NCBI GenBank assembly: GCA_021786945.1
Contig: JAJYMK010000003.1
Location: 151,299-215,298, forward strand
Source of the DNA: a bacterium
GTDB lineage: Bacteria; Patescibacteriota; Minisyncoccia; UBA6257; 02-FULL-45-10c
Reading direction: 5' to 3'
DNA: 64,000 bases
Each line of letters opens with the position of its first letter. The stretch's first letter is position 1. Under the pieces are notes generated by a model that had not been told where the DNA came from, ran no database searches, and saw nothing but the letters and a program-made list of their open reading frames with translations. The position numbers were made by a program, and so were the translations under genes. Positions 22,799 through 62,537 of the stretch are shown piece after piece.

Positions 22799-24688
22799 TT
22801 ATAGTTTATAGATAAATATTGAAGTTCCTGCTTTGTAGTCTGGCGAGAGAGGATTTTTAAGCCAGAGATATTCGTCTTGCGGGCTTCTGGTGATTGTCGC
22901 GGTCGGGCTTAACCTAGAAATAGAATTCTGAATATTATTTACGGAAACCGCTAGCCAATTTATTCCATTTTCATTCGGATTTCCCATGGTTGAATTCCAA
23001 TTTTCTGCTTTATTCCCGAAATAATATTTTATATTTCCGCCGCCGAAATAATCTATAGCTATTTTGTCTATTTTTTCTCCGCTAGGCGGGTTATTTACGA
23101 AATCTTTTAAGCGTTTCAAATCTTGACCCCAGTCAAAATTGGAATCGGTTACGTATTTATAGCCATTCATATCTCCCCCAGCCAGTTCATTAAATTTTGA
23201 AAGGAAATAAGGGCTGGCAAATACAGTGCCGGTTATTAGCCAAATTAAAAGGCCGCTTAGGATAACCGATTTGATTCCCAGATTTAATATTTTATTGAAT
23301 GTTGATATTAGTTTCTGCGACAGGCTGCCTGATATATTTTTAGGGGCCCAATAGAATAATTTTTTAATGGCTGTGGAGGTAAGAATATAGACAAATGGGA
23401 GGGTGGGCATTATGTGCCTGAAGCCGATATTTAATGGGCTCTTCATGCTGTAAAGCCAGTATCCGGCCACGAAAATAATCATACAGAATTCAGAAAAGTT
23501 GGTAGTAAGATATTCAATGAATTTATTTTGGGTATATTTTTTTCCTTTATAAAAATTTTTTGCAATGTTCCAGATGCTCGCTAAAAACGCGGTAAAGATA
23601 AGTATCAATACGGGAAGCGATTCTTTCATTAAAAAAACAATAGGGAAATAATACCAATTTCCCAAATTACTGACTTGGCCTAATAGATAGCTGGTATTAC
23701 CACCAGAAGAACGTTGCATAACCATAAGAACTCCCAGTAAATATTCAGCCAATGGTCTTAAAATTTTATTACCGGACATGGCTACAACATTGTCGGCCAA
23801 AAGGCGGTTTCCAAAACCCTGCAAAATTGTTCCGGTGTCGGAATATTGTTTGTCTATCGGATAATTTATGGTAAATAGTCCGTAAACGAGATAGATTAAA
23901 ATACCGCCTATAAAAAATATCAGTAAAAGCTTTCCGAAATCAGTCAAGAAAATTTTGAATATTTTTTTAAACTTATTTTCAGCAACCGGGCTTTTTATTT
24001 CTTTTATTGTTTTTTCTATAAATAGGGCAGCTACTATAAAAATAAAGAATGGCCCGAGAAGAACGGCGGAGAATTTTAATAATTGCGCAAAACCAAAAGA
24101 AATTCCGGCTATTATAATATTTTTTCTAGTTGGATTATAAATGTATTTAAGGAAATAATAGCTTGCCACCAGAATTCCTAAAGCTGCTCCTACGTCTGTG
24201 GTTACATAGTGCCCATGAGCTAGAAAATTAGGGGAAAAAGCGATAAGTCCTGCCGGCAGAAGCGCCCACCATCTTCCCATTAGTTCATTTGCCCAGAAAT
24301 AAGTAAATCCTATGAGTATAAGCAATAGAATCATCGGCATCAGGCGGCTATAAAAAATGATTTTATCGGCGTTGTTTCCAGATTCATATAAAAATTGGTT
24401 TCCTACAGCCCATTGGCCATTAATATCGGTCTGCCAAGAATTTTGATTGGTTGGAAAATTAAGATTTTGGAATAAAAGCGGAATTGCGGCAAGGGCTTTT
24501 ACTAGAGGTGGGTGTTCTGGATTTAGCCTGTAATCCAAAAATTTAACATAAGAATATCCGGCTGGAATATGGGCAAGTTCATCCATGATAGCGGAGTCTT
24601 GTTTTGCGGGACCAAGCATCAATAAAAATGCGGAAATGATAATAAGGGATAAAATTGCTTTCGGTATGTAGTTTTGTAGTTTGGTCAT
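22799..24688 (-). CDS. GT-C fold membrane glycosyltransferase (PMT/ArnT, GT39/GT83-like)
   Basis: Polytopic membrane protein with the first-loop motif DELAHIPAGYSYVKFLDYRLNPEHPPLVKAL, as in dolichyl-phosphate-mannose protein mannosyltransferases and ArnT. The track starts it at 24739; I prefer the start at 24688 (MTKLQNY). Confidence 0.65.
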   Translation of the reverse strand: MTKLQNYIPKAILSLIIISAFLLMLGPAKQDSAIMDELAHIPAGYSYVKFLDYRLNPEHPPLVKALAAIPLLFQNLNFPTNQNSWQTDINGQWAVGNQFLYESGNNADKIIFYSRLMPMILLLILIGFTYFWANELMGRWWALLPAGLIAFSPNFLAHGHYVTTDVGAALGILVASYYFLKYIYNPTRKNIIIAGISFGFAQLLKFSAVLLGPFFIFIVAALFIEKTIKEIKSPVAENKFKKIFKIFLTDFGKLLLIFFIGGILIYLVYGLFTINYPIDKQYSDTGTILQGFGNRLLADNVVAMSGNKILRPLAEYLLGVLMVMQRSSGGNTSYLLGQVSNLGNWYYFPIVFLMKESLPVLILIFTAFLASIWNIAKNFYKGKKYTQNKFIEYLTTNFSEFCMIIFVAGYWLYSMKSPLNIGFRHIMPTLPFVYILTSTAIKKLFYWAPKNISGSLSQKLISTFNKILNLGIKSVILSGLLIWLITGTVFASPYFLSKFNELAGGDMNGYKYVTDSNFDWGQDLKRLKDFVNNPPSGEKIDKIAIDYFGGGNIKYYFGNKAENWNSTMGNPNENGINWLAVSVNNIQNSISRLSPTATITRSPQDEYLWLKNPLSPDYKAGTSIFIYKL

Positions 24689-24710
24689 AGTATAATTATA
24701 TAATAAAACC

Positions 24711-25058
24711 ATGGCTTTTGGACTTATAAAATTTCCCAAAAACGATAAGCATTTTGTATGGACGGATCATTCCAAATCAAAGATGATCCAGTATTTTATT
24801 TCGGAAACAAAAATAAAGGAATTAATAAAAAAACATGAGAGGTTGGAGGAGGGCGTGGCTCCAAAAACTGTGGCAGTGATGAAAAGGAATGACAAAGGGA
24901 AGAAAAAAGAAGAAATGTGGGTTATGTATCAAAAAATTGGTGATAAAAAAACAGGGGAAAAAATGAAGATAATTTCTGTATGGAGATATCCGGGAGTGAG
25001 TCCTAAAAAAGAAATTCCGATTCCGGAAGATGTTCTTAAAGAAATCGAGAATTTATAA
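24711..25058 (+). CDS. Small hypothetical protein, possibly a DUF4258/RelE-fold toxin-like protein
   Basis: FVWTDHSKSKMIQYFISETKIKELI...KMKIISVWRY resembles the T-x-H-A-x-x-R-M...VITVY pattern. This is a weak call. Confidence 0.3.
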   Translation: MAFGLIKFPKNDKHFVWTDHSKSKMIQYFISETKIKELIKKHERLEEGVAPKTVAVMKRNDKGKKKEEMWVMYQKIGDKKTGEKMKIISVWRYPGVSPKKEIPIPEDVLKEIENL

Positions 25059-28812: not shown

Positions 28813-30318
28813 TTATTTTAAATAGAAATAAAGAGCATTGTTTTCGGATCTGTCCTTTTCTTGTCCGGGTAGAAGATAGTGGATATTTTTTTCCGCTTGT
28901 TTTTTAAATGTAAAAGTATCGGTTATAAACATAACAGTTTGTGCCGGCATAGGAATACCGCGGACATCCGTGCCGCCGGTTCCAACAATGATATACTTCA
29001 TTGCATTTTGCGGTAAAGAGTTTAATTCATTGCCCAAATCAACATAGTTTTGGCTGAACGCATCTTTTACATTCTGATTTTGGCCCCATTCCAAGAAATA
29101 ATAATTATATGTTTGAACAATGAGACATGCAGAAAGAAGGATAAATGAATTTTTTATAAATTCATCATGGCGTTTATAAAATCCGGAAAATTTATTTCTG
29201 GAAATTTCGAATAATTTATAGGCGCCTGCACCCGCCAAAACAAAAATAGGCGGAATCATAAGTATTGATCTTAATGCGTGAGGGATGCTTTCGTTGGAAA
29301 CCACTACGGGAGCTGCGGCAACCGCAATCCATGCAAATAATACCAAGAATTCCCGAGCGGTTTTTTTGAATATGTTCTTTAACCCATAAAAAAGACCAAA
29401 AAGAAAAACAAGTCCTACCGGCCAATAAAGTTCCGGCTGTCCGGAAAAGTTGTGGCGCCAATTATAATCCCCGGAAAAATTAAACATTCCTAGGGTTTTT
29501 ACAACATTTAAACCAAGGTCTCTCAGGGGTGTGGGCGAATTGAAGACGGAAATTTGGGATGTGCGTCCGAAGAAGTCCTGAGGATTTTGGGTAAAATATC
29601 CTATAAACGGAAGGACGGCTATGAAAGCGAATAAAGAAAAAACCCTGAATACTTCCCAGACATCTTGCCGCCTGTTGTTTTTCAGCCAATAGATAAAAAA
29701 GATTATTAATATCAATAATGGAGTACCGCGATAGGCAATATAAGTATAAAATCCGGCGCCATAAATCAAACCGCTGAAAGCGGCCATGAGCCAAGCCGGA
29801 TGATCGGCGTGCAGAGGCTTATTGACTGTATTATTTCTTTTTATTGCCAAAATCAGAAGATAGGCGGACCATACAAGGAAAAACGGAGCCATTATGGCCC
29901 GGAAGCCGATGCGGGAGAAATTTATGTGCCAAAAAGAAATAGCTGCGAAAAAAGAAGATAATAGACCTATTGAAGCGTTACCAAAAAGGGTTGTTCCAAA
30001 AAAATAAATTCCCAAAACAGTTAGTATGCCTATGATTGCGCTAGGCAATCTTAGTACCCATGGATAGTTTCCTAGAAATTTTATAAAAAAAGCCTGAATA
30101 TTTATGAATAATCCTTCACGGCCGTTATTTTCCGGATAAAATATTTTGAAATTACCCGTATCCAATGCTTCCAGCGCGTTGTTGCCGTTCATCGCTTCGT
30201 CGGGATAAAGGCCGGGGGGGGTAGCGTTTATTCCGCCTAAATTATAAAACCTAAAAAAAGCGGCGATGATAATTATTATCAACAAAAAAAACGTTTGTTT
30301 GGATATTTTTTTGGCCAT
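28813..30318 (-). CDS. GT-C fold membrane glycosyltransferase (PMT/ArnT-like), second copy
   Basis: ATPPGLYPDEAMNGNNALEA, followed by more than 10 TM helices, as in dolichyl-phosphate-mannose-protein mannosyltransferase and ArnT. Confidence 0.65.
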   Translation of the reverse strand: MAKKISKQTFFLLIIIIIAAFFRFYNLGGINATPPGLYPDEAMNGNNALEALDTGNFKIFYPENNGREGLFINIQAFFIKFLGNYPWVLRLPSAIIGILTVLGIYFFGTTLFGNASIGLLSSFFAAISFWHINFSRIGFRAIMAPFFLVWSAYLLILAIKRNNTVNKPLHADHPAWLMAAFSGLIYGAGFYTYIAYRGTPLLILIIFFIYWLKNNRRQDVWEVFRVFSLFAFIAVLPFIGYFTQNPQDFFGRTSQISVFNSPTPLRDLGLNVVKTLGMFNFSGDYNWRHNFSGQPELYWPVGLVFLFGLFYGLKNIFKKTAREFLVLFAWIAVAAAPVVVSNESIPHALRSILMIPPIFVLAGAGAYKLFEISRNKFSGFYKRHDEFIKNSFILLSACLIVQTYNYYFLEWGQNQNVKDAFSQNYVDLGNELNSLPQNAMKYIIVGTGGTDVRGIPMPAQTVMFITDTFTFKKQAEKNIHYLLPGQEKDRSENNALYFYLK

Positions 30319-30346: not shown

Positions 30347-30736
30347 ATGAATCAAAATTTTGAACGCAATGTATTTGAAAGAGATTTTCAGGCTTTCAGT
30401 AAGGAAATAAAAGAGCATCAGGAGAGAAATGGAATAGAAAATCTCAAGGAGGTCCATGTTAAGGATTATCTAAAATCAAAATTTACGGAATCTCAGCCGG
30501 TTTCGAAACAGCCAATGCAGATACAAGAGTCTGAATCTTTACCTGATTATCTTATTTCTGAGCCAAATGAAATAAAGGGGAGGGTTGAAAATCTCATTGC
30601 AATTGCTTTTAAAGACGGCATAGAAAGCGCAACAAAAGAAGCAAGGAAATCCGGACCGTTTATTTTGGATGCCTTTCATGATGCTTTAACATCAAAATTA
30701 TATTTGGAATTAAATAAAAGGGGCCTGCTGAAATAA
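30347..30736 (+). CDS. Hypothetical acidic protein, immediately upstream of the ATPase gene
   Basis: 129 aa, stop 2 nt before the next start. No recognised domain. Confidence 0.4.
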   Translation: MNQNFERNVFERDFQAFSKEIKEHQERNGIENLKEVHVKDYLKSKFTESQPVSKQPMQIQESESLPDYLISEPNEIKGRVENLIAIAFKDGIESATKEARKSGPFILDAFHDALTSKLYLELNKRGLLK

Positions 30737-30738
30737 AT

Positions 30739-33075
30739 ATGAATTTTTTATATATTGGTTTTGTATTTTTTATATTGTTTATCGGTGGTTACATAGTTTT
30801 TGTTTTATTTAAAAAAATAAAACACAAATATTTTCTTGATGCTTTAAAACTTAGAGCCTTATCTATAAAGATGATGCGTAAGTTTGATGAGGCTGACAAA
30901 GAGGCTTGGATGAAAGAAATTAATCAGTCCGGTCAATTAATGAGTATTTTGAGTAACTTAAAATCTCCTTTTTCTTTGGAGGTAGCGGTGAGTCATATCG
31001 GCGAGGAAATCATTTTTTATATTGCTGTTCCTGCCGATTCTGTCCAGTTTGCAATGAGGCAGATACAGGGTCTTTGGCCTGATTCACAAATTGAAGAGGT
31101 GGACGATTATAATATTTTTAACAATCAAGGATTTTCTTCTGGTATTTTTTTAAAACAAAAAAATAATGTTGTTTTGCCTTTTAGGACTTTTGAGGAAGCC
31201 AAGCTTGATACTTTTTTGCCTATTTTGAGTAATTTATCGAAAATTGAAGCATTAGGAGAGGGGGCTGCGTTACAGTTTATGGTTAAGCCGGTCCAACCAT
31301 CATTCAAAAAGAATTCTTTAAGAGTTTTGGAAAAACTAAAAAAGGGTAAAAAATTTGAAGAGGCTATAAAAGTTGAAAGCCCATTTATAACATTTAAGGA
31401 TATTAAAGAGGTCATCGCTGGTCCCGAAGAAAAGAAAAGCCAGGAAGAAAAAATAGTTATAGATGACGACACCATTAAAGCAATAGAAAAGAAGCTTTCT
31501 AAGCAGGTATTTTTGGTTAATGCTAGGCTTGTTGTGTCGGCGCCAAGTCAATTTAGAGCGGAAGAAATAATCAATAATCTTTCGGGATCTTTCGAACAGT
31601 TTAGCGCTCCTTTGAGAAACGAATTAAGACTCAGTAAGCCACGCAGCCAAAGCGATTTTATTTTTAAATTTATTTTTAGAGAATTTGATGATGGACAGGC
31701 AATGATTTTAGGGACGGATGAATTGGTTAGTTTATTTCATTTCCCGACTTCGGTTACGGAAATTCCTAAAATAAAATGGCTAAAATTCAGAGAGGTTGTT
31801 CCACCTTCAAATTTACCAAAGGACGGTGTATTAATAGGTAAGAGCATTTTCAGGAAAGATGAAAAGCCTGTATTTATAAGCGAAGAAGATAGGCGTAGGC
31901 ATATCTATATAATCGGTCAGACCGGAACCGGTAAATCAACTTTATTAAAAAATATGGCTGCAAGTGATATTGCCACTGGTAAGGGTTTGGCTATCATAGA
32001 TCCTCATGGAGATTTAGTTGAAGACGTTTTAGCTCTTATTCCGGAAAACAGAATTAATGATGTCGTTATCTTTGATCCGTCAGATGTTATGCGTCCGATA
32101 GGCTTAAATATGCTTGAATATGATTTGTCTAGACCCGAAGAAAAAACTTTTATAGTCAACGAAATTCAAAGCATTTTCAATAAATTGTTTTCCGCCGAAA
32201 GCATGGGGCCTATGTTTGAGCAATACATGCGCAATGCTTTGTTGCTTCTGATGGAAGATTCGGCCAATGAAATCCCAACATTTTTGGACGTGCCAAAGGT
32301 TTTTGTTGATTCTGATTTCAGATCGAAAAAACTGCAGCGTTGCCAGAATCCTGTTGTTAAAGATTTCTGGGAAAGAGAAGCTATTATGGTTGGAGGAGAG
32401 GCTTCTTTGCAAAATATAACTCCGTATATCACTTCAAAATTCAATAATTTTATTGCCAACGATTATATCAGGCCAATAATAAGTCAGCAAAAATCTTCCT
32501 TGAATTTCAGGGAAATGATGGATCAAGGAAAAATTCTTCTTGTAAATATGTCCAAAGGAAGAATAGGGGATATAAATGCCAGTCTTTTGGGTATGATTAT
32601 TGTCGGTAAAATTCTTATGTCTGCATTATCTCGTGCCGATATTTCAATGGAAAAAAGAAGAGATTTTAATCTTTATATTGATGAATTTCAGAATTTTACC
32701 ACTGATTCCATTTCGACTATTCTTTCGGAAGCCAGAAAGTACAGACTCAATCTTATTATCGCTCATCAATTTATAGCTCAAATTCCGGAAAAAATAAGAG
32801 ATTCCGTATTTGGCAATGTGGGTTCCACAATAGCATTTAGAGTTGGTCCAGACGATGCGGAGTATCTCGAAAAGGAATTTTCTCCTGTGTTTTCCAAAAA
32901 TGATTTGATGAATATCGATAATTTCAATGCTTATGTAAAAATTTTGATTAACAATGAAACAAGCAAGCCGTTTAATATCAAAATTATTGCTCCCCAAAAA
33001 GGAAATTCCGAGAGAAGAGATGCCATAAAAGAGATGTCGAGGGTTAAATATGGTTTCGATAGGACAATGATGTAA
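30739..33075 (+). CDS. Type IV secretion coupling-protein-like ATPase (TrwB/TraD/VirD4 AAD-binding, FtsK/HerA-superfamily P-loop), N-terminal TM anchor
   Basis: Walker A motif HIYIIGQTGTGKSTLLKNMAASDIATGKGLAIIDPHGDL, and Walker B motif FNLYIDEFQNF. 778 aa. Confidence 0.55.
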   Translation: MNFLYIGFVFFILFIGGYIVFVLFKKIKHKYFLDALKLRALSIKMMRKFDEADKEAWMKEINQSGQLMSILSNLKSPFSLEVAVSHIGEEIIFYIAVPADSVQFAMRQIQGLWPDSQIEEVDDYNIFNNQGFSSGIFLKQKNNVVLPFRTFEEAKLDTFLPILSNLSKIEALGEGAALQFMVKPVQPSFKKNSLRVLEKLKKGKKFEEAIKVESPFITFKDIKEVIAGPEEKKSQEEKIVIDDDTIKAIEKKLSKQVFLVNARLVVSAPSQFRAEEIINNLSGSFEQFSAPLRNELRLSKPRSQSDFIFKFIFREFDDGQAMILGTDELVSLFHFPTSVTEIPKIKWLKFREVVPPSNLPKDGVLIGKSIFRKDEKPVFISEEDRRRHIYIIGQTGTGKSTLLKNMAASDIATGKGLAIIDPHGDLVEDVLALIPENRINDVVIFDPSDVMRPIGLNMLEYDLSRPEEKTFIVNEIQSIFNKLFSAESMGPMFEQYMRNALLLLMEDSANEIPTFLDVPKVFVDSDFRSKKLQRCQNPVVKDFWEREAIMVGGEASLQNITPYITSKFNNFIANDYIRPIISQQKSSLNFREMMDQGKILLVNMSKGRIGDINASLLGMIIVGKILMSALSRADISMEKRRDFNLYIDEFQNFTTDSISTILSEARKYRLNLIIAHQFIAQIPEKIRDSVFGNVGSTIAFRVGPDDAEYLEKEFSPVFSKNDLMNIDNFNAYVKILINNETSKPFNIKIIAPQKGNSERRDAIKEMSRVKYGFDRTMM

Positions 33076-51185: not shown

Positions 51186-51887
51186 ATGAATAAGATATGG
51201 GCGGCTGTACTGATATTTGTGTTTATTCCAGCGTTTAATTCTCAAGTAAGCGCTGAGATTAAAATTCTGGATATTGAGCTTCCGGAAACGGAAATTTCAA
51301 CATCAACACTTGTAAGCGAAGATGTTGTGATTTATACCGGAGAAAAATTGGAGAGGCCGAAATTAAGCATTGCGCTTGGTTTGGGCAATGGCTATAAACT
51401 TGGCGATCAAAAAGATGGACGTTATCATTATGATAATAGTTCTGTCATTTCTCTTCAATTTGGATATTTACCTTCAAAATATTTAGAAGTTCAGGGTGAA
51501 TATTCCAGAGTTGGAAATTTTTATCGCAAAAGATCATGGGGTGAGCAAAATCAAAGATTTAATAGTTATGGATTAAATCTTAAATTAAAAAGACCCTTGA
51601 TGTTTGATTCGATAAAATTATTTCCTTATATAGTAGTAGGTATGGGAAAAAACAGAATGACTTACTGCGGCATAGATACCGGAAAAAATTTCAGTTATTC
51701 CGGATTTGGAAATTACAGAAAAATAGGAGTAGGGGCTGAAGTTGACTTAAATAGGGATTTTTTTCTGTTTTCTGAATATAACTACTATAAAATGGGTTTA
51801 ATTACCTTCCGTCTTAAAAGCGGAAAGGAAGTCAAAAACTTCCCATATTATTCAGTAGTTTTTTCCGGAATTGGAATTAAATTCTAA
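51186..51887 (+). CDS. Secreted protein with outer-membrane beta-barrel-like features
   Basis: Signal peptide (MNKIWAAVLIFVFIPAFNSQVSA). Alternating hydrophobic, Gly/Tyr-rich strands (SIALGLGNGYKLG, FGYLPSKYLEVQGEY). C-terminal ...GIGIKF ends in Phe. Confidence 0.45.
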   Translation: MNKIWAAVLIFVFIPAFNSQVSAEIKILDIELPETEISTSTLVSEDVVIYTGEKLERPKLSIALGLGNGYKLGDQKDGRYHYDNSSVISLQFGYLPSKYLEVQGEYSRVGNFYRKRSWGEQNQRFNSYGLNLKLKRPLMFDSIKLFPYIVVGMGKNRMTYCGIDTGKNFSYSGFGNYRKIGVGAEVDLNRDFFLFSEYNYYKMGLITFRLKSGKEVKNFPYYSVVFSGIGIKF

Positions 51888-51940: not shown

Positions 51941-54900
51941 TTAATTTTTCTGACATTCACCAGAAGATGAACATGTATATCCTTCATCACACGTTCCGCA
52001 ACTTATCATTCCCCCGCAAACCGGATCGGTCATATTTCCACACTCCCTTTTACTTTTATTAGCAGTTACACAAATGCTTGAAATATTCGGGACGCACACG
52101 CAATTATTATTGATACATTGTTCTTGTTTTGTCGTATTACAAATTTTTGGACCAAGCACGCTTTGATTTTTAACGGGACTGCAATTAGTAGTAGATTGTA
52201 AAAGTGTTCCGCATGTATTTGATGTAATAGCTGGACTCCAAATTGGCGTAAGAGTTCCCGATACATTGTATTTTCTAACTCCGCAATTACTTATTTGAGT
52301 AAGTGTTGATCCTTGGCAAACAGTTGAATCAGGCGGTGACCAGATTGAGTCGGTGCAAGTAAAAGCCGTTCCACCAACTGATTCTTCATAGCTATTTTCG
52401 TCTCCAGCAATAACTATTGAAAACTTATCCATATTTCCTTCTGCCGCAATAAACCAGGTGGGATCAATGTAGCAGCTCCCCCCTTCAAATTTAAGAGTAC
52501 TCCAATCATAGTTTGAAATACTAAAACAATAATGTTTTATTCCATTTACTGATACATAAACATTATAGCCGGTTGCTAAATCGCCGGAAACGGAGTTTAT
52601 AGTAAGCTTTCCTGATGTTAAATCAAAATTTAATGGATTAATTGTCACCGGTCCTGGTTCTGGATATGTTATCCTGAACCCATTTTTTAAAGTTGATTGA
52701 GTCAGGATATTGTTATTTGCATCTTTCATGACAACTTTAACGTCGAATAGTCCTGTAGTAACTGCGCTAATATCGCAAACGCCATTTGTTATTTCCGTAG
52801 AACTTGCAAATTTAAAACCTGAACAATTAATTAAATCATTAGCGCCTGGATTTATCAGTGCCACTTCTATTTTTACGGGAGGCGGCAAAAATCCTGCGCC
52901 GTAAATGGATATATTTTCAATTTTATTTTGATAGTTCAAACCATCAGTAGTTACTATTATTCCATCGCTTGAACCGAGGCTATTTTTAGCTCGAATTGTA
53001 TATGAAAGTTTTTGTTGTGGGGTTTCCTTGAATTTATTGTCGTCGAAAGAAGTTGTTGTTCTTTGTATTTCAGTTGTGCTTCCTACGCCACTTCTGGTGA
53101 TAATATATTCTAAATTTTCCCCACCTAAATTTAAAGGTGGATCCCATGACAAAGAAAACCCCCTATTTATTGGAATGATTTTGACATTTCTTGGATTAGA
53201 TGGCTTACTTTTTGTGGTATACACTAAAGAAGTGGGTACTGTATCTTCTATTCTTGAGCAGCCGGACAAGGATGCTTGCATTGTTCCACAAATTATTGTT
53301 TTAAGATGAATAGTTGGATTGCCCCATTCGGAATTATAGTCAACTTGCCTCATAGATCCACTAAAATAACCGTAATTGGCATAACTTGCGCCGCTAGGAA
53401 GACTGAATTTAATCTCATCCAGTGATTTATAAACCCATAAACTATCTAGGCCACAATTAGCGCAATAATTGTATCCCATATAGCCAATATGATACGGAAA
53501 ACAAATTCCATAATGATCAACGCAGTTGCCGGATAACGTACAACAAGAATTTGCATTTTGCTTTGTAAATGTAGATCCGCTTTCGGCACAGCTTGGTTTT
53601 GCTCCCCAGCAACTACTTCCTCTTCCGCCTAAAACATTTGGAGAGTTATACATTGTCCCATTCTTCCAAATAGGAAATGAATCTATAGAAGCTTTTATGT
53701 AGCCATTAGAATTTAAGCAGTTTAGCAAGGATTCCATAGTTTTCGTTGTTGCTTCTGTTTGTGTTTTGTAAGAACCCTGCCAATTAATATCCTCGGACGA
53801 TCTTAAAGAATCTGTTGGTGTAAGATACACAGATCCGTCTGGAGCAACGTATTTGCTTACAAATGGCGAACAAATATATTTTGCTTCTGGATTGGTACAC
53901 GGTATCCCAATAGCTTGTGGGCAATATCTGCGATAAACTACTTTATCAAATTTTATAGCTTTATATTCTATAGGACTTGGGCTTGCATTTATTTCCCCGC
54001 TTTGAGAGCTAGCCCCAACATTATTTTTTGCGGCAATTTTATAATAATAAGTGGCTCCATTTATTACGGCGGTATCCACATAGTTCAAAACATTTCCAAT
54101 TTCAATTGGACTGGAATTGAATTGCCCAGAAACCTCACTTTTATAGATGAGGTAACCAGTAATTGGACTTCCCCCGTCTTTTGTGGGAGAGTTCCAATTT
54201 AATGAAACTTGGGCATTTTCACTGTTGGCAGAAAAATTTTGAGGAATTTCCGGAGCTATGGCAAAGGGCGTAGCATCTGCTTCGCTGCTTTGAGTTCCAA
54301 TGCCTTTTGTATTTTTTGCGGCAATTTTATAAAAATATTTTGTACCGTTAGAAACAGTTGTGTCCGTATAGGTTAATACGTTTGCTGTTTCGGTCAAAAG
54401 CGTTTCTCCGCCAGAAGCGGTTCCTCTATAAATTTCATAATTAGTTATAGCATCACCGCCGTTATTAATTGGAGCTGCCCAGGAAAGAGAAGCTTGAGAA
54501 TTTTCACTTACAACGATTAAATTTTGCGGAGCATCTGGGCTGGAAATGGTAAATGCAGAAAAAGTTGGAACCACGATATGGCTAACATCGTAACAGTTTT
54601 TACCATTTATATCACATCTTGTTTTAGTAATATCAATTATTGGCGGGAGGAATGTTGGATACATAACTCTATCCTGGCCAATAATATCGAGTTTTCCGTA
54701 TGTCCAAATCTGAAATTCAGGGGTGTTTTCGAGGATGGTGTACCACCGTCCCGTCCAACCATATTGCAGACATTTTTTTTTCAAATTATTGATACTTTCA
54801 TCAATAGCTTGAGCTTGTGAGTTGAAGGTTTTTACTTCTGGCCCACCATATTTTGTAACGTCTAAGCAGGAATCATCATTCGATCTAAGAAAGCGTGAAT

Positions 54901-54982
54901 TTTTGTAAAAAGTATCTGCGTTAACCGAAAACGGATTTATTAATAAAGCTCCGACTAATAATAATAAATTTTTTTTATTCAT
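51941..54982 (-). CDS. Large secreted surface protein (1013 aa) with at least 3 fibronectin type III repeats and a Cys-rich C-terminal region
   Basis: Signal peptide MNKKNLLLLVGALLINPFSVNA. Repeated FN3 units (...PQNLIVVSENSQASLSWAAPINNGGDAITNYEIYRG...KYFYKIAAKNTKG...). The C-terminal 120 aa are Cys-dense. Confidence 0.7.
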   Translation of the reverse strand: MNKKNLLLLVGALLINPFSVNADTFYKNSRFLRSNDDSCLDVTKYGGPEVKTFNSQAQAIDESINNLKKKCLQYGWTGRWYTILENTPEFQIWTYGKLDIIGQDRVMYPTFLPPIIDITKTRCDINGKNCYDVSHIVVPTFSAFTISSPDAPQNLIVVSENSQASLSWAAPINNGGDAITNYEIYRGTASGGETLLTETANVLTYTDTTVSNGTKYFYKIAAKNTKGIGTQSSEADATPFAIAPEIPQNFSANSENAQVSLNWNSPTKDGGSPITGYLIYKSEVSGQFNSSPIEIGNVLNYVDTAVINGATYYYKIAAKNNVGASSQSGEINASPSPIEYKAIKFDKVVYRRYCPQAIGIPCTNPEAKYICSPFVSKYVAPDGSVYLTPTDSLRSSEDINWQGSYKTQTEATTKTMESLLNCLNSNGYIKASIDSFPIWKNGTMYNSPNVLGGRGSSCWGAKPSCAESGSTFTKQNANSCCTLSGNCVDHYGICFPYHIGYMGYNYCANCGLDSLWVYKSLDEIKFSLPSGASYANYGYFSGSMRQVDYNSEWGNPTIHLKTIICGTMQASLSGCSRIEDTVPTSLVYTTKSKPSNPRNVKIIPINRGFSLSWDPPLNLGGENLEYIITRSGVGSTTEIQRTTTSFDDNKFKETPQQKLSYTIRAKNSLGSSDGIIVTTDGLNYQNKIENISIYGAGFLPPPVKIEVALINPGANDLINCSGFKFASSTEITNGVCDISAVTTGLFDVKVVMKDANNNILTQSTLKNGFRITYPEPGPVTINPLNFDLTSGKLTINSVSGDLATGYNVYVSVNGIKHYCFSISNYDWSTLKFEGGSCYIDPTWFIAAEGNMDKFSIVIAGDENSYEESVGGTAFTCTDSIWSPPDSTVCQGSTLTQISNCGVRKYNVSGTLTPIWSPAITSNTCGTLLQSTTNCSPVKNQSVLGPKICNTTKQEQCINNNCVCVPNISSICVTANKSKRECGNMTDPVCGGMISCGTCDEGYTCSSSGECQKN

Positions 54983-54986
54983 GATT

Positions 54987-55508
54987 TTATTTAATTATCG
55001 TTAATTCAATTAAATCTAAGATTTTATTGGTTAAAACATTTTCTTTAATCAGGGCATCAAATTTATAGCCGGATTTTATTTCTCGAATTGATATGTCCGA
55101 TAAATAATTTCCATTAGGTTTTATTTCATTGATATATATTTTAGTAGAAGTTGATATATTTAAGGAATACTCATTTTCGGTGTAAGTATTATTAATACCT
55201 ATAGATGTTCTTTCGGCTGTTAATACCTTTGCCGTTACCAAGATTTTATTTCCATTAATTGATTTTATGGTTCCGTTTAAAGCATTTAATACAAATGCAT
55301 CATTTTCTAAATTTTTAAAAGATTCGGTTTGGGCTACAAGATAATTATCTGATTTTTTATAGATTGAATAAGTAAAATAACCAGCAATAATAAGAGTTAT
55401 AAAAATAATTACGAATATTAAAATTTTTTTATTTTTTGTCATACTTTTATTGTACCCCTCCCTTTTAATAATTACCAATTTGTTAATAATTTTTTTAAAA
55501 AATTGCAT
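54987..55508 (-). CDS. Hypothetical membrane-anchored protein (N-terminal TM), co-directional and 4 nt upstream of the large surface protein
   Basis: ORF and hydrophobic segment only. Confidence 0.4.
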   Translation of the reverse strand: MQFFKKIINKLVIIKREGYNKSMTKNKKILIFVIIFITLIIAGYFTYSIYKKSDNYLVAQTESFKNLENDAFVLNALNGTIKSINGNKILVTAKVLTAERTSIGINNTYTENEYSLNISTSTKIYINEIKPNGNYLSDISIREIKSGYKFDALIKENVLTNKILDLIELTIIK

Positions 55509-57746: not shown

Positions 57747-58013
57747 TTATTTTTGTTTTTTACGGCCCTTTAAATTATTAAAAAAATTTACAAAATGCTT
57801 TACTTTGGCGCCTTCGGTTTTAACATTCTGTCTGAGTTCCGCAATATCTTCTTTAATTAGCCCTGCCTCATCTTTTGCTTTTTCCGAAATATCGTCAACA
57901 TTTCTTAGGATTCGTATGAGGTAAGTGATTAATATACCTAAAAGAATTGTTAGTATCACTACCGCGATAGATGTGATAAAAAAGAATATTTCAGATTTCA
58001 TTAAAGAGTCCAT
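57747..58013 (-). CDS. Small hypothetical membrane protein (single N-terminal TM, charged helical tail)
   Basis: ORF only. Confidence 0.35.
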   Translation of the reverse strand: MDSLMKSEIFFFITSIAVVILTILLGILITYLIRILRNVDDISEKAKDEAGLIKEDIAELRQNVKTEGAKVKHFVNFFNNLKGRKKQK

Positions 58014-58052
58014 TTTTTTATATTTTAGATATTGTTATTATTATAAACCAGT

Positions 58053-58529
58053 TTATTTTTTTAACAACAAGAAGATTAGGATAGCTACTATTATCGCCTG
58101 AGAGGATATTGTAATAATTTTATTTGTTACGACAGAATGAATTTTTTTATGAATTTCTGAATGTTTGTTTAGGGCCTTTGTAAAAATATTTCTTTCTTTA
58201 TTTTTAATGCAATAGTTTAAAAAAGCTAAGCCATCGGGAAGTATTGCAAAAAAAGCTCCTGTTAAAGCCAGTAATATTTCGCTTGAATTTTTATTCTGAA
58301 TTAAATATAAAATCGTAAGCAGCCCGATTGATAAATCGATAAAGATTTTGACAAATTCTTTTCCGGCGGATTTAAAATCCCCGTGTGTTATATTCTCTAT
58401 TTTATATTCAACATGAGGAATAGAATCTAAAAAATAATGACTGGTTAAGCCTAAAACTATTGCTGCGCCTACACTTCCACTGTTTGTTGCCAATACCGCT
58501 CCCGTTATTGAATGAACCGATAAAATCAT
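58053..58529 (-). CDS. Membrane protein, possibly a YdjM-like membrane-bound metal-dependent hydrolase
   Basis: MILSVHSITGA...SHYFLDSIPH... with multiple TM helices. This is a weak family guess. Confidence 0.35.
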   Translation of the reverse strand: MILSVHSITGAVLATNSGSVGAAIVLGLTSHYFLDSIPHVEYKIENITHGDFKSAGKEFVKIFIDLSIGLLTILYLIQNKNSSEILLALTGAFFAILPDGLAFLNYCIKNKERNIFTKALNKHSEIHKKIHSVVTNKIITISSQAIIVAILIFLLLKK

Positions 58530-58615
58530 ATGTTTTTTAAGTCTTTATATTATAACAAATACATTGGAATTTTAGAAAAATTGTGATAATATTTTTAAAT
58601 ATTCGTCGGTTTTAT

Positions 58616-58686
58616 TGCCGGGTCGTCTAACGGTAGGACATCGCCCTTTGGAGGCGAGTATCGGGGTTCGAGTCCCTGCCCGGCAG
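58616..58686 (+). tRNA. tRNA-Gln (anticodon UUG)
   Basis: Cloverleaf: acceptor TGCCGGG pairs with CCCGGCA. D-arm GTCT...GGAC. Anticodon stem TCGCC/GGCGA with loop cTTTGGa (anticodon TTG). T-arm CGGGG-TTCGAGT-CCCTG. Discriminator G, no encoded CCA. An extended -10 (TGTGATAAT) lies about 30 nt upstream. Confidence 0.85.
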
Positions 58687-58689
58687 CTC

Positions 58690-59397
58690 CTAAGTTTGCA
58701 GTTTATATAATTCTTCTAACGCTATAACATGGCTACAAATTTTTTTCTGTGTAAAAAAATCACAATCACAAAGCCATTGATTGTCTCGTTTTATTAAATT
58801 TCTAGTACCGTGTTCGGCATCTATTGTGGCTTTTTCTAATTCTATTTTGAATCTTCTGGGTTCATTTATATATTTTTTAGCTTTAATAATTTTTCCGATT
58901 AAATCCTCAACAAATTTTTGATTTAATTCCCTATTATTTTCAGTTAATTCAATTAATATTATATCCTTTCTTTTTTTAATATTTTCAATAAAATCGTCAC
59001 TATATATTTTAGATAAAGTTACTAAACAAATATTGGGAGAATTTAATATTAAATTGGTTGCTTTTTTAAATTTTTCTGAATAAAGTTCCATTTGTCCAAT
59101 CTCATCTAAATATAAAAGATCCCCTTCTTTAAATTGAAGTATTTCGGGAATGACTAATTCTAGATTGTTTATATCTACAAAATATCTTGAAACTTTATAT
59201 TCTGTTAAAAAATTAACACTTGCGAGCATGGCCTTTTTGCCGGTGCTGGTTACTATTTCAAAACCAACCCTTTCGCCATTTTCGCGAACTTCGTTAGTAA
59301 CAAATCCAACTTTGTTTGGATAACTCAAAATGACTTTATTTAAGAGTGTAGACTTACCACTTCTTGGCATTCCCGTAACAATAATATTTTTTCTCAT
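58690..59397 (-). CDS. THEP1-like NTPase fused to a C-terminal SWIM zinc finger
   Basis: Walker A IIVTGMPRSGKSTLLNKV, Walker B LLYLDEIGQMEL, and C-terminal W-x-CDCDFF...CSHVIA (CxC...CxH SWIM). The track ORF extends to 59478 across the 32-bp repeat; I prefer the start at M28 (59397). Confidence 0.6.
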   Translation of the reverse strand: MRKNIIVTGMPRSGKSTLLNKVILSYPNKVGFVTNEVRENGERVGFEIVTSTGKKAMLASVNFLTEYKVSRYFVDINNLELVIPEILQFKEGDLLYLDEIGQMELYSEKFKKATNLILNSPNICLVTLSKIYSDDFIENIKKRKDIILIELTENNRELNQKFVEDLIGKIIKAKKYINEPRRFKIELEKATIDAEHGTRNLIKRDNQWLCDCDFFTQKKICSHVIALEELYKLQT

Positions 59398-59438
59398 TAG
59401 ATAAATATTATCACATTTGTACGGCTTCTTTTTCTTTG

Positions 59439-59470
59439 AAAAAGGTTCCAACTTCGTCCCAGACGGCCAG
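59439..59470 (+). repeat. 32-bp direct repeat, copy 1: AAAAAGGTTCCAACTTCGTCCCAGACGGCCAG
   Basis: Identical 32-mer also at 60113-60144 and 63049-63080, same orientation, all intergenic. Confidence 0.9.
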
Positions 59471-59536
59471 CAAATCAATCCCCTATTTTTAAATCAAAAC
59501 TATTGATATAATTTTTGTATTAAATTTTTAAAAATT

Positions 59537-60088
59537 ATGAATAATATTTTTAAATCTAAAATCAAAAGAGAAATTGTCAATTTTTTAACCGGCGAAAAAT
59601 ATGAAATGCTTGGTGGCTTAGACATGTCTTTTTCGGAAGATGATGTTAAAAAGATTACAAAAATATGTTCCCAAAAAGATGCTTACGATATTTTATTTAA
59701 AAATAGATTAAGCGGAAAGCCTTATACAGAAAAAAATGCCCGGAGTTTTATAGATTGGATTAAAGACGGTTGGAAAAATCAAACTCATTTTGTGTTTTTG
59801 ATAAGAAAACAAGATTCGGAGATAATTGGCGCCATTGATATAAAAAGCCCCGATCTTAATAGGGCTGAGATTGGATATTGGGCTGATGAAAATTATAGAG
59901 GTTTTATGACAAGCGCTGTAAATGAATTATTTTTTATAGCAAAAGAAAGTGGTTATATTAAATTATTTGCCGGAGTTTTGGCTAAAAACAATAAATCTAT
60001 TGCCGTATTAGAACGTACTGGTTTTAGGAAGGTAAAAGAAGATAAAAAAGACGGCGAAGATCATTTCATATACGAAAAAGAATTATAA
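59537..60088 (+). CDS. GNAT family N-acetyltransferase (RimJ/RimL-like)
   Basis: ...HFVFLIRKQDSEIIGAIDIKSPDLNRAEIGYWADENYRGFMTSAVNELFFIAKESGYIKLFAGVLAKNNKSIAVLERTGF: GNAT motifs A/B. Confidence 0.75.
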   Translation: MNNIFKSKIKREIVNFLTGEKYEMLGGLDMSFSEDDVKKITKICSQKDAYDILFKNRLSGKPYTEKNARSFIDWIKDGWKNQTHFVFLIRKQDSEIIGAIDIKSPDLNRAEIGYWADENYRGFMTSAVNELFFIAKESGYIKLFAGVLAKNNKSIAVLERTGFRKVKEDKKDGEDHFIYEKEL

Positions 60089-60098
60089 TCTTAGCTTA

Positions 60099-60839
60099 GT
60101 GATTACCTTCAAAAAAAGGTTCCAACTTCGTCCCAGACGGCCAGAATACACCATAAAAGACGGCGTTGTTTTGGAATCAGAGCTAATAAAAAATCGTTTT
60201 TTTGATTCTAAACAAATTAAGAATTTAAAAGAATCAGTTGAGTGGAGAAGCGTTCCCTTATTTAATATGAATTACCCGATTAATCTTTATATATTATCAA
60301 AACACCCAGAAATAATTTCTAAAGAAGATTATAAAAAGTTTTTAAGACAATCACTTGAGAGAATAAAATTAGGCGTTTTAAAAGCAGAGGAAAATGTTAA
60401 GGGGGATGGACATAATTATTTAGAAATTACAAATAACTATGCCGGTAAGAGCATATGGTTTTCAGAAGAACGGGTAGTAAAAGAAGGAGATGATAAATAT
60501 AAAAAAATATCAGAATATGCTGAAAAATTTGTTAAAGATTTATTTGATCAGAATTCATCTAAATATGTGGGTATAACAAAGGATGAATATCAATTGAGTA
60601 ATGAGATATTAGAATATATAGAAAAATTAATTAATAATATAGAGATAGCCTCAAAAAATAAAGATGTTTTTAAAATTAAATATTTAGTTGCATCTATTTT
60701 TTTAACATTTATAATTTCTTTGATTGTTAGTTGGTTTGTAAAAATAAACGCATTTATTATTTTTATAGTCGTTCAAATAGTTACTTTTTTTCAGGCTTTT
60801 ATTGGTGGCTGGATAGATAAAAAAATTAAAAAAAGATAA
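60099..60839 (+). CDS. Hypothetical protein with two C-terminal TM helices (start uncertain)
   Basis: The ORF from a GTG at 60099 contains repeat copy 2. An internal ATG at 60267 (MNYPINLY...) is a more likely start. Confidence 0.35.
   Translation: MITFKKRFQLRPRRPEYTIKDGVVLESELIKNRFFDSKQIKNLKESVEWRSVPLFNMNYPINLYILSKHPEIISKEDYKKFLRQSLERIKLGVLKAEENVKGDGHNYLEITNNYAGKSIWFSEERVVKEGDDKYKKISEYAEKFVKDLFDQNSSKYVGITKDEYQLSNEILEYIEKLINNIEIASKNKDVFKIKYLVASIFLTFIISLIVSWFVKINAFIIFIVVQIVTFFQAFIGGWIDKKIKKR
60113..60144 (+). repeat. 32-bp direct repeat, copy 2
   Basis: Identical to copy 1. Confidence 0.9.
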
Positions 60840-60875
60840 ATCCCATTCCTTTGTAAAAATAGGTATTCAGGTATC

Positions 60876-61700
60876 ATGAATAAAGTTTTTAAATCACAAG
60901 AAGAATTAAAAAAAGAATTAGATTCACAATTCAAACTTCTAAAAGTTTTAACCGAGCAATATGACAAAGGCGATGTGATTATAGGAAAGTCGATAGCGAC
61001 TTCTATTCGGGTACTTGTTCATGACACAGATGATTCGCGCTCTTTGCTTGGGCAACTTAATTTTAAAAATAGAAAATTTTTTGACACGGCCTGCCCCGAC
61101 ATCTTTCCTGTACCAGGAAAAATTCAGCGTATTGGAAGTTTTTGTGGCTTAGTAAGTATCGGTAGCGTTAATAATGAGCAGACTTATATCCCCTATCTTG
61201 ATGAGGCTCCTGTTAAAAAATTTGGTTTTGTAAATTTTGATGAGTTTTGGAATAGGATAATTTTTATTGATAATAATAAAAACAGCTTTACAAGAAAAGA
61301 AATAGTTTTGGCTATTGCTAACCAAGATGGTGGTGCGCACGTTGATCCAAAAATTGAAAAAAAATACAAAGAGTTATCTAGAGAGAATTCTCTTGGTTGG
61401 AAAGCTAGTTTAGACGGAAAAATTTGGAATGATTCATGCGGTTCTGAGCTGGCTGCAGTACGTCAAATCGCACATGAGTTACTGCGCACATTTGAGATCG
61501 AATATCCTTATAAAAAAATGGTGACCGGTGATGCCGGATTTATTTTAGGTGGAATGGGTTTTATAATTAGTAATACCACCGATGTAAATAGTATTACGGA
61601 TTATTTGGTGAATAAGAAAAAAATTGGACCAAATAAAAAATGTCTATGCGGAAGTGGTCAGAAATATAAAAAATGTCATGGAAAGTATGGTTGGATATAA
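60876..61700 (+). CDS. SEC-C motif domain protein (C-terminal CxC...CH metal-binding motif) with an unknown N-terminal domain
   Basis: C-terminus KKCLCGSGQKYKKCHGKYGW is a SecA-C/YecA-type SEC-C motif. I recognise no family for the N-terminal domain of about 250 aa. Confidence 0.55.
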   Translation: MNKVFKSQEELKKELDSQFKLLKVLTEQYDKGDVIIGKSIATSIRVLVHDTDDSRSLLGQLNFKNRKFFDTACPDIFPVPGKIQRIGSFCGLVSIGSVNNEQTYIPYLDEAPVKKFGFVNFDEFWNRIIFIDNNKNSFTRKEIVLAIANQDGGAHVDPKIEKKYKELSRENSLGWKASLDGKIWNDSCGSELAAVRQIAHELLRTFEIEYPYKKMVTGDAGFILGGMGFIISNTTDVNSITDYLVNKKKIGPNKKCLCGSGQKYKKCHGKYGWI

Positions 61701-61718
61701 TTTTATAAAATTATATTT

Positions 61719-62468
61719 TTATGCCTTACTATTTCTAGATAATACTTCATTTAATTTATAACAAAATTCAGAATTAAAAACTGGTTCTATATATGTATCA
61801 TCTAGGTATTTTTTTAATCCGGCTAAATTTTCAATTATATAAACAAGGGGCTCTATTCGTTCAATAACTTTAGATTTGCCAACCAACAAAATAGCCTTCC
61901 TTGATTTAATTACTATTCCTTGTTTTTCGAGATAATTAATTAATTTTAGTTCGTGTCTATTAATTTCATCGATTGGATTTTGCCATTTATTTAATTCACA
62001 AATACATTTATTTCCTTTACACCACTCTTCTTTAAAAAATTTATCGCCCAAAACTCTGAAATTGCCAGATATATTTTTAATTTCAAATATCAATAAACCT
62101 TTCTTACCAACTACAATTGCATCAATATCAAATCCTCCATCTGAAAATTTAAAATTTTTATAAATTTTATAACCCTCATTATTTGGCAAGAGCTCTTCTA
62201 ATTTTTTAAAGGCCCTTCTTTCACCCATCCATCCCATAAGAGAATGCAATGAAATAAGTCCCAATCTATCCCCTAATCGTCCCATAAAAATCCAAAACCA
62301 AGAAAATATAATTCCGAATATTATTCCAGCGATAAATAATAAAGCTGGAACGTCTAGTTTAAAATCTTTTAAATTAGTAAGACCATATAAAATTACTGAT
62401 ATACCAAATAGCAATAAAGCTATTACTATAATTGTTACTTGCAAAAATTTACGTTTAGAATAAGACAT
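61719..62468 (-). CDS. NERD (nuclease-related domain) protein with two N-terminal TM helices
   Basis: GERRAFKKLEELLPNNEGYKIYKNFKF...GGFDIDAIVVGKKGLLIFEIKNISGNF...WQNPIDEINRHELKL: NERD pattern. Confidence 0.6.
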   Translation of the reverse strand: MSYSKRKFLQVTIIVIALLLFGISVILYGLTNLKDFKLDVPALLFIAGIIFGIIFSWFWIFMGRLGDRLGLISLHSLMGWMGERRAFKKLEELLPNNEGYKIYKNFKFSDGGFDIDAIVVGKKGLLIFEIKNISGNFRVLGDKFFKEEWCKGNKCICELNKWQNPIDEINRHELKLINYLEKQGIVIKSRKAILLVGKSKVIERIEPLVYIIENLAGLKKYLDDTYIEPVFNSEFCYKLNEVLSRNSKA

Positions 62469-62537
62469 TTTAAAATTATATCAAAATATTATTGACTATT
62501 AAATTTATTAAACATATATTAAATTTACAAATAAAAT

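Follow-up and report, generated by a model that had tools for sequence, protein, structure and literature searches.

A DUF8128-family ATPase and its small conserved partner protein in Patescibacteria, and their possible relation to type IV secretion motors

The type IV secretion systems (T4SSs) of Patescibacteria have been surveyed in 3,035 genomes by Quinonero-Coronel et al. (2025, Microb Genom; PMC12102498), who found a VirB4-based chromosomal T4SS in 2,417 of them, with VirB4 proteins that nearly all belong to one clade nested within the monoderm MPF-FATA class. Homologues of the type IV coupling proteins (T4CPs) numbered 5,713 in 2,918 genomes, of which 148 lay near virB4, and relaxases were almost absent. 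In a part of Table S3 of that survey, Paceibacteria and Microgenomatia genomes carry one or two t4cp1 matches flagged as not near VirB4, and the same genomes hold a separate VirB4-TrsD cluster, usually with VirB3, VirB6 and/or VirB2. In Paceibacteria this cluster is usually found near dnaA/dnaN. In the present study, we analysed a 64,000-nucleotide (nt) stretch, hereafter the window, from a bacterium of the class Minisyncoccia (lineage 02-FULL-45-10c; GCA_021786945.1, contig JAJYMK010000003.1, positions 151,299 to 215,298, forward strand), in which a P-loop ATPase of 778 amino acids (aa) is encoded directly behind a partner protein of 129 aa. We believe, with a probability of about one half, that the pair represents the coupling or energising ATPase and the adaptor of the relaxase-less T4SS that Patescibacteria carry on the chromosome, whose other genes would lie elsewhere in the genome.

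The T4SS of Southlakia epibionticum has been shown to be essential (Wang et al. 2023). Reviews describe the role of the patescibacterial T4SS as unknown and speculate on effector delivery or on the acquisition of nutrients or nucleic acids, and a 2024 perspective calls it "completely unknown". Like the ATPase of the window, the t4cp1 matches of the survey answer to a VirD4-type profile, lie away from the VirB4/TrsD/VirB3/VirB6/VirB2 cluster and have no relaxase (PMC12102498). Since T4CP homologues are rarely near virB4, a lone T4CP-like gene is the documented norm in Patescibacteria, and it is therefore unwarranted to infer a new function from isolation. For this reason the argument of the initial annotation of this DNA, which took a lone ATPase to suggest a function in uptake or translocation, fails. 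The survey treats its T4CP homologues as profile matches and makes no mention of DUF8128 or a VirB4-like N-domain, of a partner, of fusion or of the loss of a transmembrane (TM) helix, and these are the features that are described below.

Domain architecture of the ATPase

The features of the pair are listed by window position; all are on the + strand.
30347..30736, +: partner gene, 129 aa, isoelectric point (pI) 5.96, an open reading frame (ORF) whose homologues are small hypothetical Patescibacteria proteins
30653..30703, +: most conserved partner motif, GPFILDAFHDALTSKLY, residues 103-119, consensus P..LD.FHD.L
30718..30738, +: junction of the two genes, with an AAGGGG Shine-Dalgarno-like motif, the TAA stop and a 2-nt gap
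30739..33075, +: ATPase gene, 778 aa, with TM helix, DUF8128 domain and P-loop domain
30745..30810, +: TM helix, residues ~3-24, followed by KKIKHK; Kyte-Doolittle score 2.76, modelled by AlphaFold2 (AF2) as a helix over residues 3-36
30847..31773, +: N-domain, residues ~37-345, Pfam PF26449 (DUF8128), with a predicted fold like that of the VirB4 N-terminal domain (NTD)
31828..33006, +: P-loop translocase domain, residues ~364-756
31891..31902, +: conserved RRRH preceding Walker A
31915..31941, +: Walker A, GQTGTGKST, residues 393-401
32137..32481, +: all-helical insertion between Walker A and B, residues ~467-581
32680..32697, +: Walker B, DEFQNF, residues 648-653

Both ORFs are real genes, and their lengths and the gap between them match exactly what the initial annotation had given. 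The boundary reads TAA-AT-ATG, the partner gene contains the Shine-Dalgarno-like motif in its 3' end, and the two genes are not separated by a terminator-like site. To judge from this arrangement, partner and ATPase are probably co-transcribed and translationally coupled.

The conservation of the ATPase motifs was scored over 77 homologues. In the Walker A region G393, Q394, T395, G396, G398 and K399 are invariant, as is H388, and R385-R387 are conserved in at least 90%; D648, E649 and F650 of Walker B are also invariant. The two Walker motifs, IIDPHGDL (residues 419-426) and the single N-terminal TM helix, all of which had been noticed earlier, are present, and the motifs are invariant or nearly so across the family. 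The KKIKHK stretch follows the TM helix, and therefore the C-terminal bulk of the protein is predicted to be cytoplasmic. In the predicted model, the helical insertion appears to take the position of the all-alpha domain of TrwB and of the helical bundle of VirB4.

Three Pfam families matched the ATPase above their gathering thresholds: DUF87/HerA-central (34.8 bits, 2.4e-8) and, over short stretches, TrwB_AAD_bind (27.7 bits, cut-off 20.5, 1.6e-6) and TraG-D_C (24.8 bits, cut-off 22, 2.2e-5). The best curated matches were T4CPs, namely SXT_TraD (5.5e-12) and VirD4-like CD1115 (2.3e-10 over residues 381-708), with scores for the NCBIfam T4CP families far under their cut-offs (44.9 against 366 and 40 against 250). 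VirB4 and FtsK models matched at the P-loop only; the VirB4 model TIGR00929 reached 22.3 bits against a cut-off of 643, Pfam gave no AAA_10 match, and the HerA model NF040819 scored 17.4 against 970. In addition, PHROG 5156 matches the ATPase from end to end. These profiles support the assignment of the protein to the P-loop ATPases of the FtsK/HerA superfamily, on the T4SS-motor side. FtsK was a clearly poorer match than the T4CP profiles, so that the role in DNA uptake or exchange with a host suggested earlier, against which a grouping with FtsK would have spoken, survives this comparison as a candidate function.

The region between the TM helix and the P-loop domain had been described as about 350 aa with no recognisable family. 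Our local Pfam scan, with a copy lacking PF26449, likewise returned nothing for residues 1-360, but the precomputed Pfam matches of the exact protein and of all its close homologues place PF26449 (DUF8128) there, and the region is thus an already named domain of ~310 aa. An AF2 model of the ATPase was built with the 77 homologues (mean predicted local distance difference test score, pLDDT, 80.7). In a structure search the modelled N-domain matched only the N-terminal domain of VirB4, and no HerA chain was returned. The model also aligns with most of TrwB, with the helical insertion at residues 467-581. Structure or profile comparison had been proposed for both proteins; for the partner, the search of its profile against solved structures in the PDB gave nothing.

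Because one TM helix (or none) is followed by a VirB4-NTD-like domain of ~310 aa, the layout of the ATPase is VirB4-like. According to the predicted model, then, the protein joins a VirB4-like domain layout to a T4CP-like P-loop domain and is not of the classical TrwB/VirD4 architecture. In TrwB/VirD4/TraD (PDB 1e9r) a two-helix TM domain leads directly into the nucleotide-binding domain (NBD), and there is no 310-aa VirB4-like domain; the ATPase shares with the T4CPs an FtsK/HerA-superfamily P-loop NBD with intact Walker A and B, and lacks a membrane domain directly before it. The VirD4/TraD/TrwB type proposed earlier therefore holds for the superfamily, in which T4CP profiles score best, and not for the architecture, where the TM helix is followed by the VirB4-NTD-like domain. 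With VirB4/TrwK (PDB 7o42, 4ag5) the protein would share the type of N-terminal domain and a RecA-like C-terminal domain, as far as the models go. It has no VirB4 sequence signature (TIGR00929, AAA_10/CagE_TrbE_VirB), and no VirB3, VirB6 or VirB8 channel genes adjoin it.

The partner protein and the wider family

The partner consists of an N-terminal helix, a variable Q/S/P-rich linker, an LPDYL motif and a conserved C-terminal helical region. In one alignment (A3) P104, F105, L107, D108, A109 and H111-T115 are invariant; in a more diverse one with fused forms (A4) D108 is the sole invariant column, and H111 and L114 are nearly invariant. We found 39 close and 160 profile-detectable homologues, all of them small hypothetical proteins of Patescibacteria. 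Searches of Pfam, NCBIfam, PADLOC and PHROGs with the partner gave nothing significant, and it contains no enzymatic domain and no TM segment. A wider profile search returned only small hypothetical proteins and no other fusions.

For the gene pair, 80 loci from different GTDB species were examined, with ATPase identities of 43-78%. Among the lineages sampled are Paceibacteria and Wolfe-, Morani-, Sung-, Giovannoni-, Komeili-, Staskawicz-, Nomura-, Taylor-, Campbell- and Yonath-bacteria. Seven lacked upstream DNA, which leaves 73 informative on the partner. A partner homologue was encoded directly upstream on the same strand in 43 of these and formed an in-frame N-terminal fusion with the ATPase in 19; in total it was present in 63 and unrecognisable in 10. 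The small upstream gene is thus supported as a genuine conserved partner. The initial annotation had called it small and acidic, and the acidity is only mild (pI 5.96, with 22 D+E against 20 K+R; family median pI 5.35).

The TM helix is present in all homologues of 778-865 aa and in no fused form of 910-968 aa. Fused forms lack the helix, and therefore the partner domain occupies exactly its place. Adjacency together with recurrent fusion gives strong evidence that ATPase and partner form a physical complex. The logic is comparable to that of Cagbeta-CagZ of Helicobacter pylori (PDB 8dol), although the partner showed no detectable sequence similarity to any solved structure.

Some loci depart from this pattern. 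In one (L037, the sole such locus) a partner homologue of 115 aa is encoded three genes downstream of the ATPase, and in the 10 loci with an unrecognisable partner (including the L048/L072/L076 group) a different small upstream gene is present, with no detectable similarity to the partner. The fused, TM-less forms, where the upstream genes were readable, directly follow the secY-adk-map end of the ribosomal operon (L050, L051, L058, L060, L063, L066, L070, L071, L077, L078 and others), and in most of these loci ndk, a small membrane protein and a beta-CASP/RMMBL RNA-metabolising nuclease come next. This neighbourhood may be relevant to the proposed feeding on host RNA, but it could also be no more than a clade-specific gene order.

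The ATPase has more than 7,431 homologues in the databases, of which the best 120 align over the full length at 58-88% identity, and the DUF8128 profile matches 2,206 clusters at 50% identity among 1.84 billion representative proteins. It appears to be single-copy in the loci examined. Compared locus by locus with its neighbours, the ATPase was 78% identical where GltX was 81%, FtsW 71% and MurG 69%; 70% where GltX was 62%; 59% where YchF was 63% and FtsW 52%; and 50% where SerRS was 41%. In these shared loci it diverges about as slowly as the tRNA synthetases. The partner diverges much faster (59, 43, 40 and 32% in the same loci). To judge from these identities, the ATPase is inherited vertically under strong constraint, unlike a gene of a mobile element.

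Outside the phylum, a tblastn search for homologues of the ATPase led to three places: plasmids of Bacillus and related bacteria, a Streptomyces megaplasmid, and Bacillus phage G (gp156). These homologues are full-length (residues ~80-770, 24-27% identity, E 1e-37 to 3e-60), and the DUF8128 profile matches their N-regions at 2e-16, 3e-10 and 3e-6. Among them, the DUF87 proteins of the Bacillus plasmids (NZ_CP154917, pBM69) and gp156 are 24-25% identical to the ATPase (E 1e-37 to 1e-44) and share with it the DUF8128-like N-region and the domain order. The plasmid proteins differ in having neither TM helix nor partner and in adjoining a relaxase and a VirB4; the NZ_CP154917 protein, the one among them whose C-terminus was inspected, has a long acidic tail at that end.

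In the 27.5-kb plasmid of B. subtilis and in pBM69 of B. methanolicus, a Tcp/ICEBs1-type conjugation operon opens with the homologue, which is followed by a Replic_Relax relaxase, a small membrane protein, TcpC, TcpE, TcpF and a CD3337/EF1877 (TcpH-like) membrane protein. TcpF is in this operon a bona fide VirB4 (3e-251), separate from the homologue. The homologues therefore have the relaxase and T4SS association of a T4CP and sit at the T4CP position, from which a T4CP role would follow by analogy. We found no experimental paper on these plasmid proteins, and pLS20 was rejected as a characterised relative, its T4CP being a classical two-TM VirD4. In phage G (L084, 4186-8328) a truncated VirB4-like protein, gp155 (CD1110 family, 3e-51), is encoded immediately upstream of gp156, which makes a pair of VirB4-like and T4CP-like proteins in a jumbo phage. 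About 40 other Bacillus phages carry homologues of the ATPase, mostly as partial matches, mainly to the C-terminal domain.

Genomic surroundings

The region is housekeeping throughout, and the first 14 kb of the window resembles a ribosomal-protein operon, judged from ORF sizes alone. Upstream of the pair are secY-adk-map, a GT2 glycosyltransferase, two class-II tRNA synthetases (one of them SerRS), an FtsQ-like gene, two GT-C (PMT_2) glycosyltransferases, YchF and others. Downstream follow an amidohydrolase, ftsW, murG, gltX and an M23 peptidase and, farther on, an ABC-F protein, a DHH protein, pgk, mraY, a D-Ala-D-Ala carboxypeptidase, scpAB and dnaX. The earlier observation that no secretion or conjugation genes lie nearby is borne out: within 14-64 kb of the window there was no gene for secretion, pilus, competence, conjugation, relaxase or integrase. 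The guanine-cytosine (GC) content around the ATPase locus is typical of the window.

The two PMT_2 glycosyltransferases lie just upstream, at 22799-24739 (-) and 28813-30318 (-), and one of them is transcribed away from the partner gene, the two start codons being only 28 bp apart. Upstream of the ATPase, PMT_2 genes are seen repeatedly, in 26 and in 13 of the 80 loci, and downstream of it a GtrA-family gene together with dnaX is found in 13 of 80. A functional tie to envelope glycosylation through PMT_2 and GtrA is left unproven, because inherited gene order explains the pattern equally well.

Further observations concern the remainder of the window. Up to ~40 kb the GC skew is positive and almost every gene lies on the + strand; past that point the skew becomes weakly negative and the - strand carries the genes, in a convergent arrangement. 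A replication terminus near 40 kb, some 7-10 kb away from the ATPase locus, would fit this pattern. A 233-aa protein at 51186-51887 (+) scores above the cut-off of OMP_b-brl (PF13505, 1.2e-10), a family of outer-membrane beta-barrels, which is odd, the lineage being thought monoderm. At 51941-54982 (-) a 1,013-aa protein with fibronectin type III domains is encoded, and next to it, at 54987-55508 (-), a 173-aa protein of no family; the two may be a surface adhesin pair. Finally, a low-GC stretch (0.29 against ~0.35) at 58000-62500 starts at a tRNA-Gln gene (58616-58687) and encodes an NTPase_1-SWIM protein, a GNAT acetyltransferase, a SEC-C-motif protein and a NERD nuclease-related protein. 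Either a small island or a cluster of the defence type may be present here.

A possible T4SS motor and its alternatives

The reading that the pair serves a T4SS is favoured because T4CP profiles score best and the catalytic motifs are invariant, because the Bacillus plasmid relatives hold the T4CP position beside a separate VirB4, and because of the linkage and fusion of the partner, the core-gene behaviour of the ATPase and the widespread VirB4-type T4SS with unlinked T4CPs (PMC12102498). It is expected that the T4SS itself is encoded elsewhere in the source genome. Several points weigh against this reading. No T4SS gene lies within 10 kb of the ATPase, here or in the 80 related loci, and therefore the functional link to a T4SS is one that we infer. 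The t4cp1 matches of the survey may belong to a family other than DUF8128. Furthermore, the survey found T4CP homologues in more genomes (2,918) than VirB4 (2,417), and in Tn-seq (transposon sequencing) of Southlakia epibionticum the T4CP homologue was non-essential while the T4SS genes were essential (PMC12102498); Wang et al. (2023) saw no recognisable coupling protein, and no relaxase, in the T4SS cluster of that organism. The membrane anchor has been lost in a whole subclade. In addition, the likeness of the N-domain to VirB4 depends on AF2 models (pLDDT ~80), and since hhalign of the N-domain profile against TcpF, a VirB4, found nothing, the link between DUF8128 and VirB4 stays a structural one.

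If the T4SS-coupling reading is correct, the two genes would constitute a vertically inherited module common to the Patescibacteria, descended from the coupling ATPase of monoderm (Tcp/ICEBs1-type) conjugation systems. The ATPase would act as a ring-forming translocation ATPase of the VirB4/VirD4/HerA branch, presumably a hexamer, the ring being predicted from its structural relatives, and in most lineages its N-terminal helix would tether it to the cytoplasmic face of the membrane. In the R388 structure, VirB4 docks onto the inner-membrane platform through its N-domain. By analogy, the VirB4-like N-domain may dock onto the base of the T4SS or onto VirB4/TrsD. The partner would be a cytoplasmic adaptor or regulator attached to the ATPase at its N-terminal, membrane-proximal end, following the logic of CagZ and Cagbeta, and in the fused, TM-less lineages it may assume the role of recruitment. 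ATP hydrolysis would then power the passage of a macromolecule (a protein or a nucleic acid) through the relaxase-less T4SS, in either direction. A bolder form of the proposal is doubtful in our opinion. It holds that the essential T4SS has its missing motor in the DUF8128 ATPase with its partner, a VirB4/T4CP hybrid that would import host RNA or DNA or export effectors at the interface of epibiont and host, with the partner as substrate adaptor or gate. If true, it would explain a conservation at the level of tRNA synthetases in genomes unable to make nucleotides.

Some of the same observations would also suit an autonomous translocase, that is, a T4CP-derived motor that no longer serves the T4SS and was exapted for a different core task, such as moving protein or nucleic acid at or across the membrane by way of another partner, and possibly the uptake of host DNA or RNA. 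The ATPase is never linked to T4SS genes in the window or the 80 loci and is conserved like a tRNA synthetase, TM-less fused forms occur, and T4CP homologues are spread more widely than VirB4; the authors of the survey themselves write that exaptation "cannot be ruled out" (PMC12102498). It is not settled by what route Patescibacteria obtain their nucleotides, and feeding on host RNA has been put forward for a cultivated relative in a 2026 preprint. Against this, no alternative channel gene is conserved beside the ATPase, the recurrent neighbours (PMT_2 glycosyltransferases, GtrA, DnaX, Ndk) resemble inherited gene order, and ComEC-type competence was dispensable for growth in the one species tested; we regard an autonomous translocase as a serious competitor, though an unlikely one. 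The VirB4-like fold of the N-domain might instead point to a second VirB4-type assembly ATPase, which would energise the assembly of a membrane complex or pilus and would not be a substrate receptor. This is improbable, in that VirB4 profiles barely match (about 22 bits for TIGR00929 against 643, AAA_10 absent), Jackhmmer searches started from two VirB4s, TcpF and gp155 of phage G, did not reach the ATPase family, the plasmid relatives coexist with a true VirB4 while standing at the T4CP position, and the partner has no TM segment, unlike VirB3.

The surroundings of the gene recall an FtsK/SpoIIIE-like chromosome translocase acting at cell division, since the ATPase lies next to ftsW-murG in a region with an ftsQ-like gene, mraY, scpAB and the change of sign in GC skew. 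The protein itself has neither the FtsK/SpoIIIE motor-domain signature nor a multi-TM N-domain or gamma domain, and such a function is very unlikely. Least credible of all is a HerA-type ATPase with a small effector in anti-phage defence or on a mobile element, for example the remnant of an integrative and conjugative element. PADLOC yielded only domain-level matches of the ATPase to mad8 and HerA and no defence system. The ATPase is apparently single-copy, slow-evolving and syntenic with housekeeping genes in many lineages, the partner lacks an enzymatic domain, further defence, relaxase or integrase genes are missing from 14-64 kb of the window, and the GC content is not atypical. A HerA-NurA or defence identity was accordingly rejected: there was no HAS-barrel match and no nuclease among the neighbours or other effector, the PADLOC matches were at domain level only, and the context is housekeeping. 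An integrated conjugative element, a possibility that would have told against the reading of the initial annotation, was rejected too, as no relaxase, integrase or Tra genes occur in 14-64 kb, the GC content is ordinary and the ATPase is conserved as a core gene at the level of tRNA synthetases.

Lone ATPases of the T4CP kind have already been reported in Patescibacteria (PMC12102498). In the literature searched, the VirB4-like nature of DUF8128, the conserved or fused partner with its accompanying TM loss, and the housekeeping-level conservation of the family appear to be undescribed. Patescibacteria make up a large share of bacterial diversity and are unable to make nucleotides, amino acids or lipids, and their chromosomal T4SS is essential in the one species tested. 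Among candidates for the ATPase by which the substrate of this T4SS is selected or moved, the pair described here is a concrete one, and the natural fusions predict a direct contact between ATPase and partner. A T4CP-like P-loop domain behind a VirB4-like N-domain also bears on the relationship between VirB4 and the coupling proteins. Even if the pair should prove to be merely a divergent T4CP with its adaptor, it would give a better annotation to Pfam DUF8128 and to a family of hypothetical proteins.

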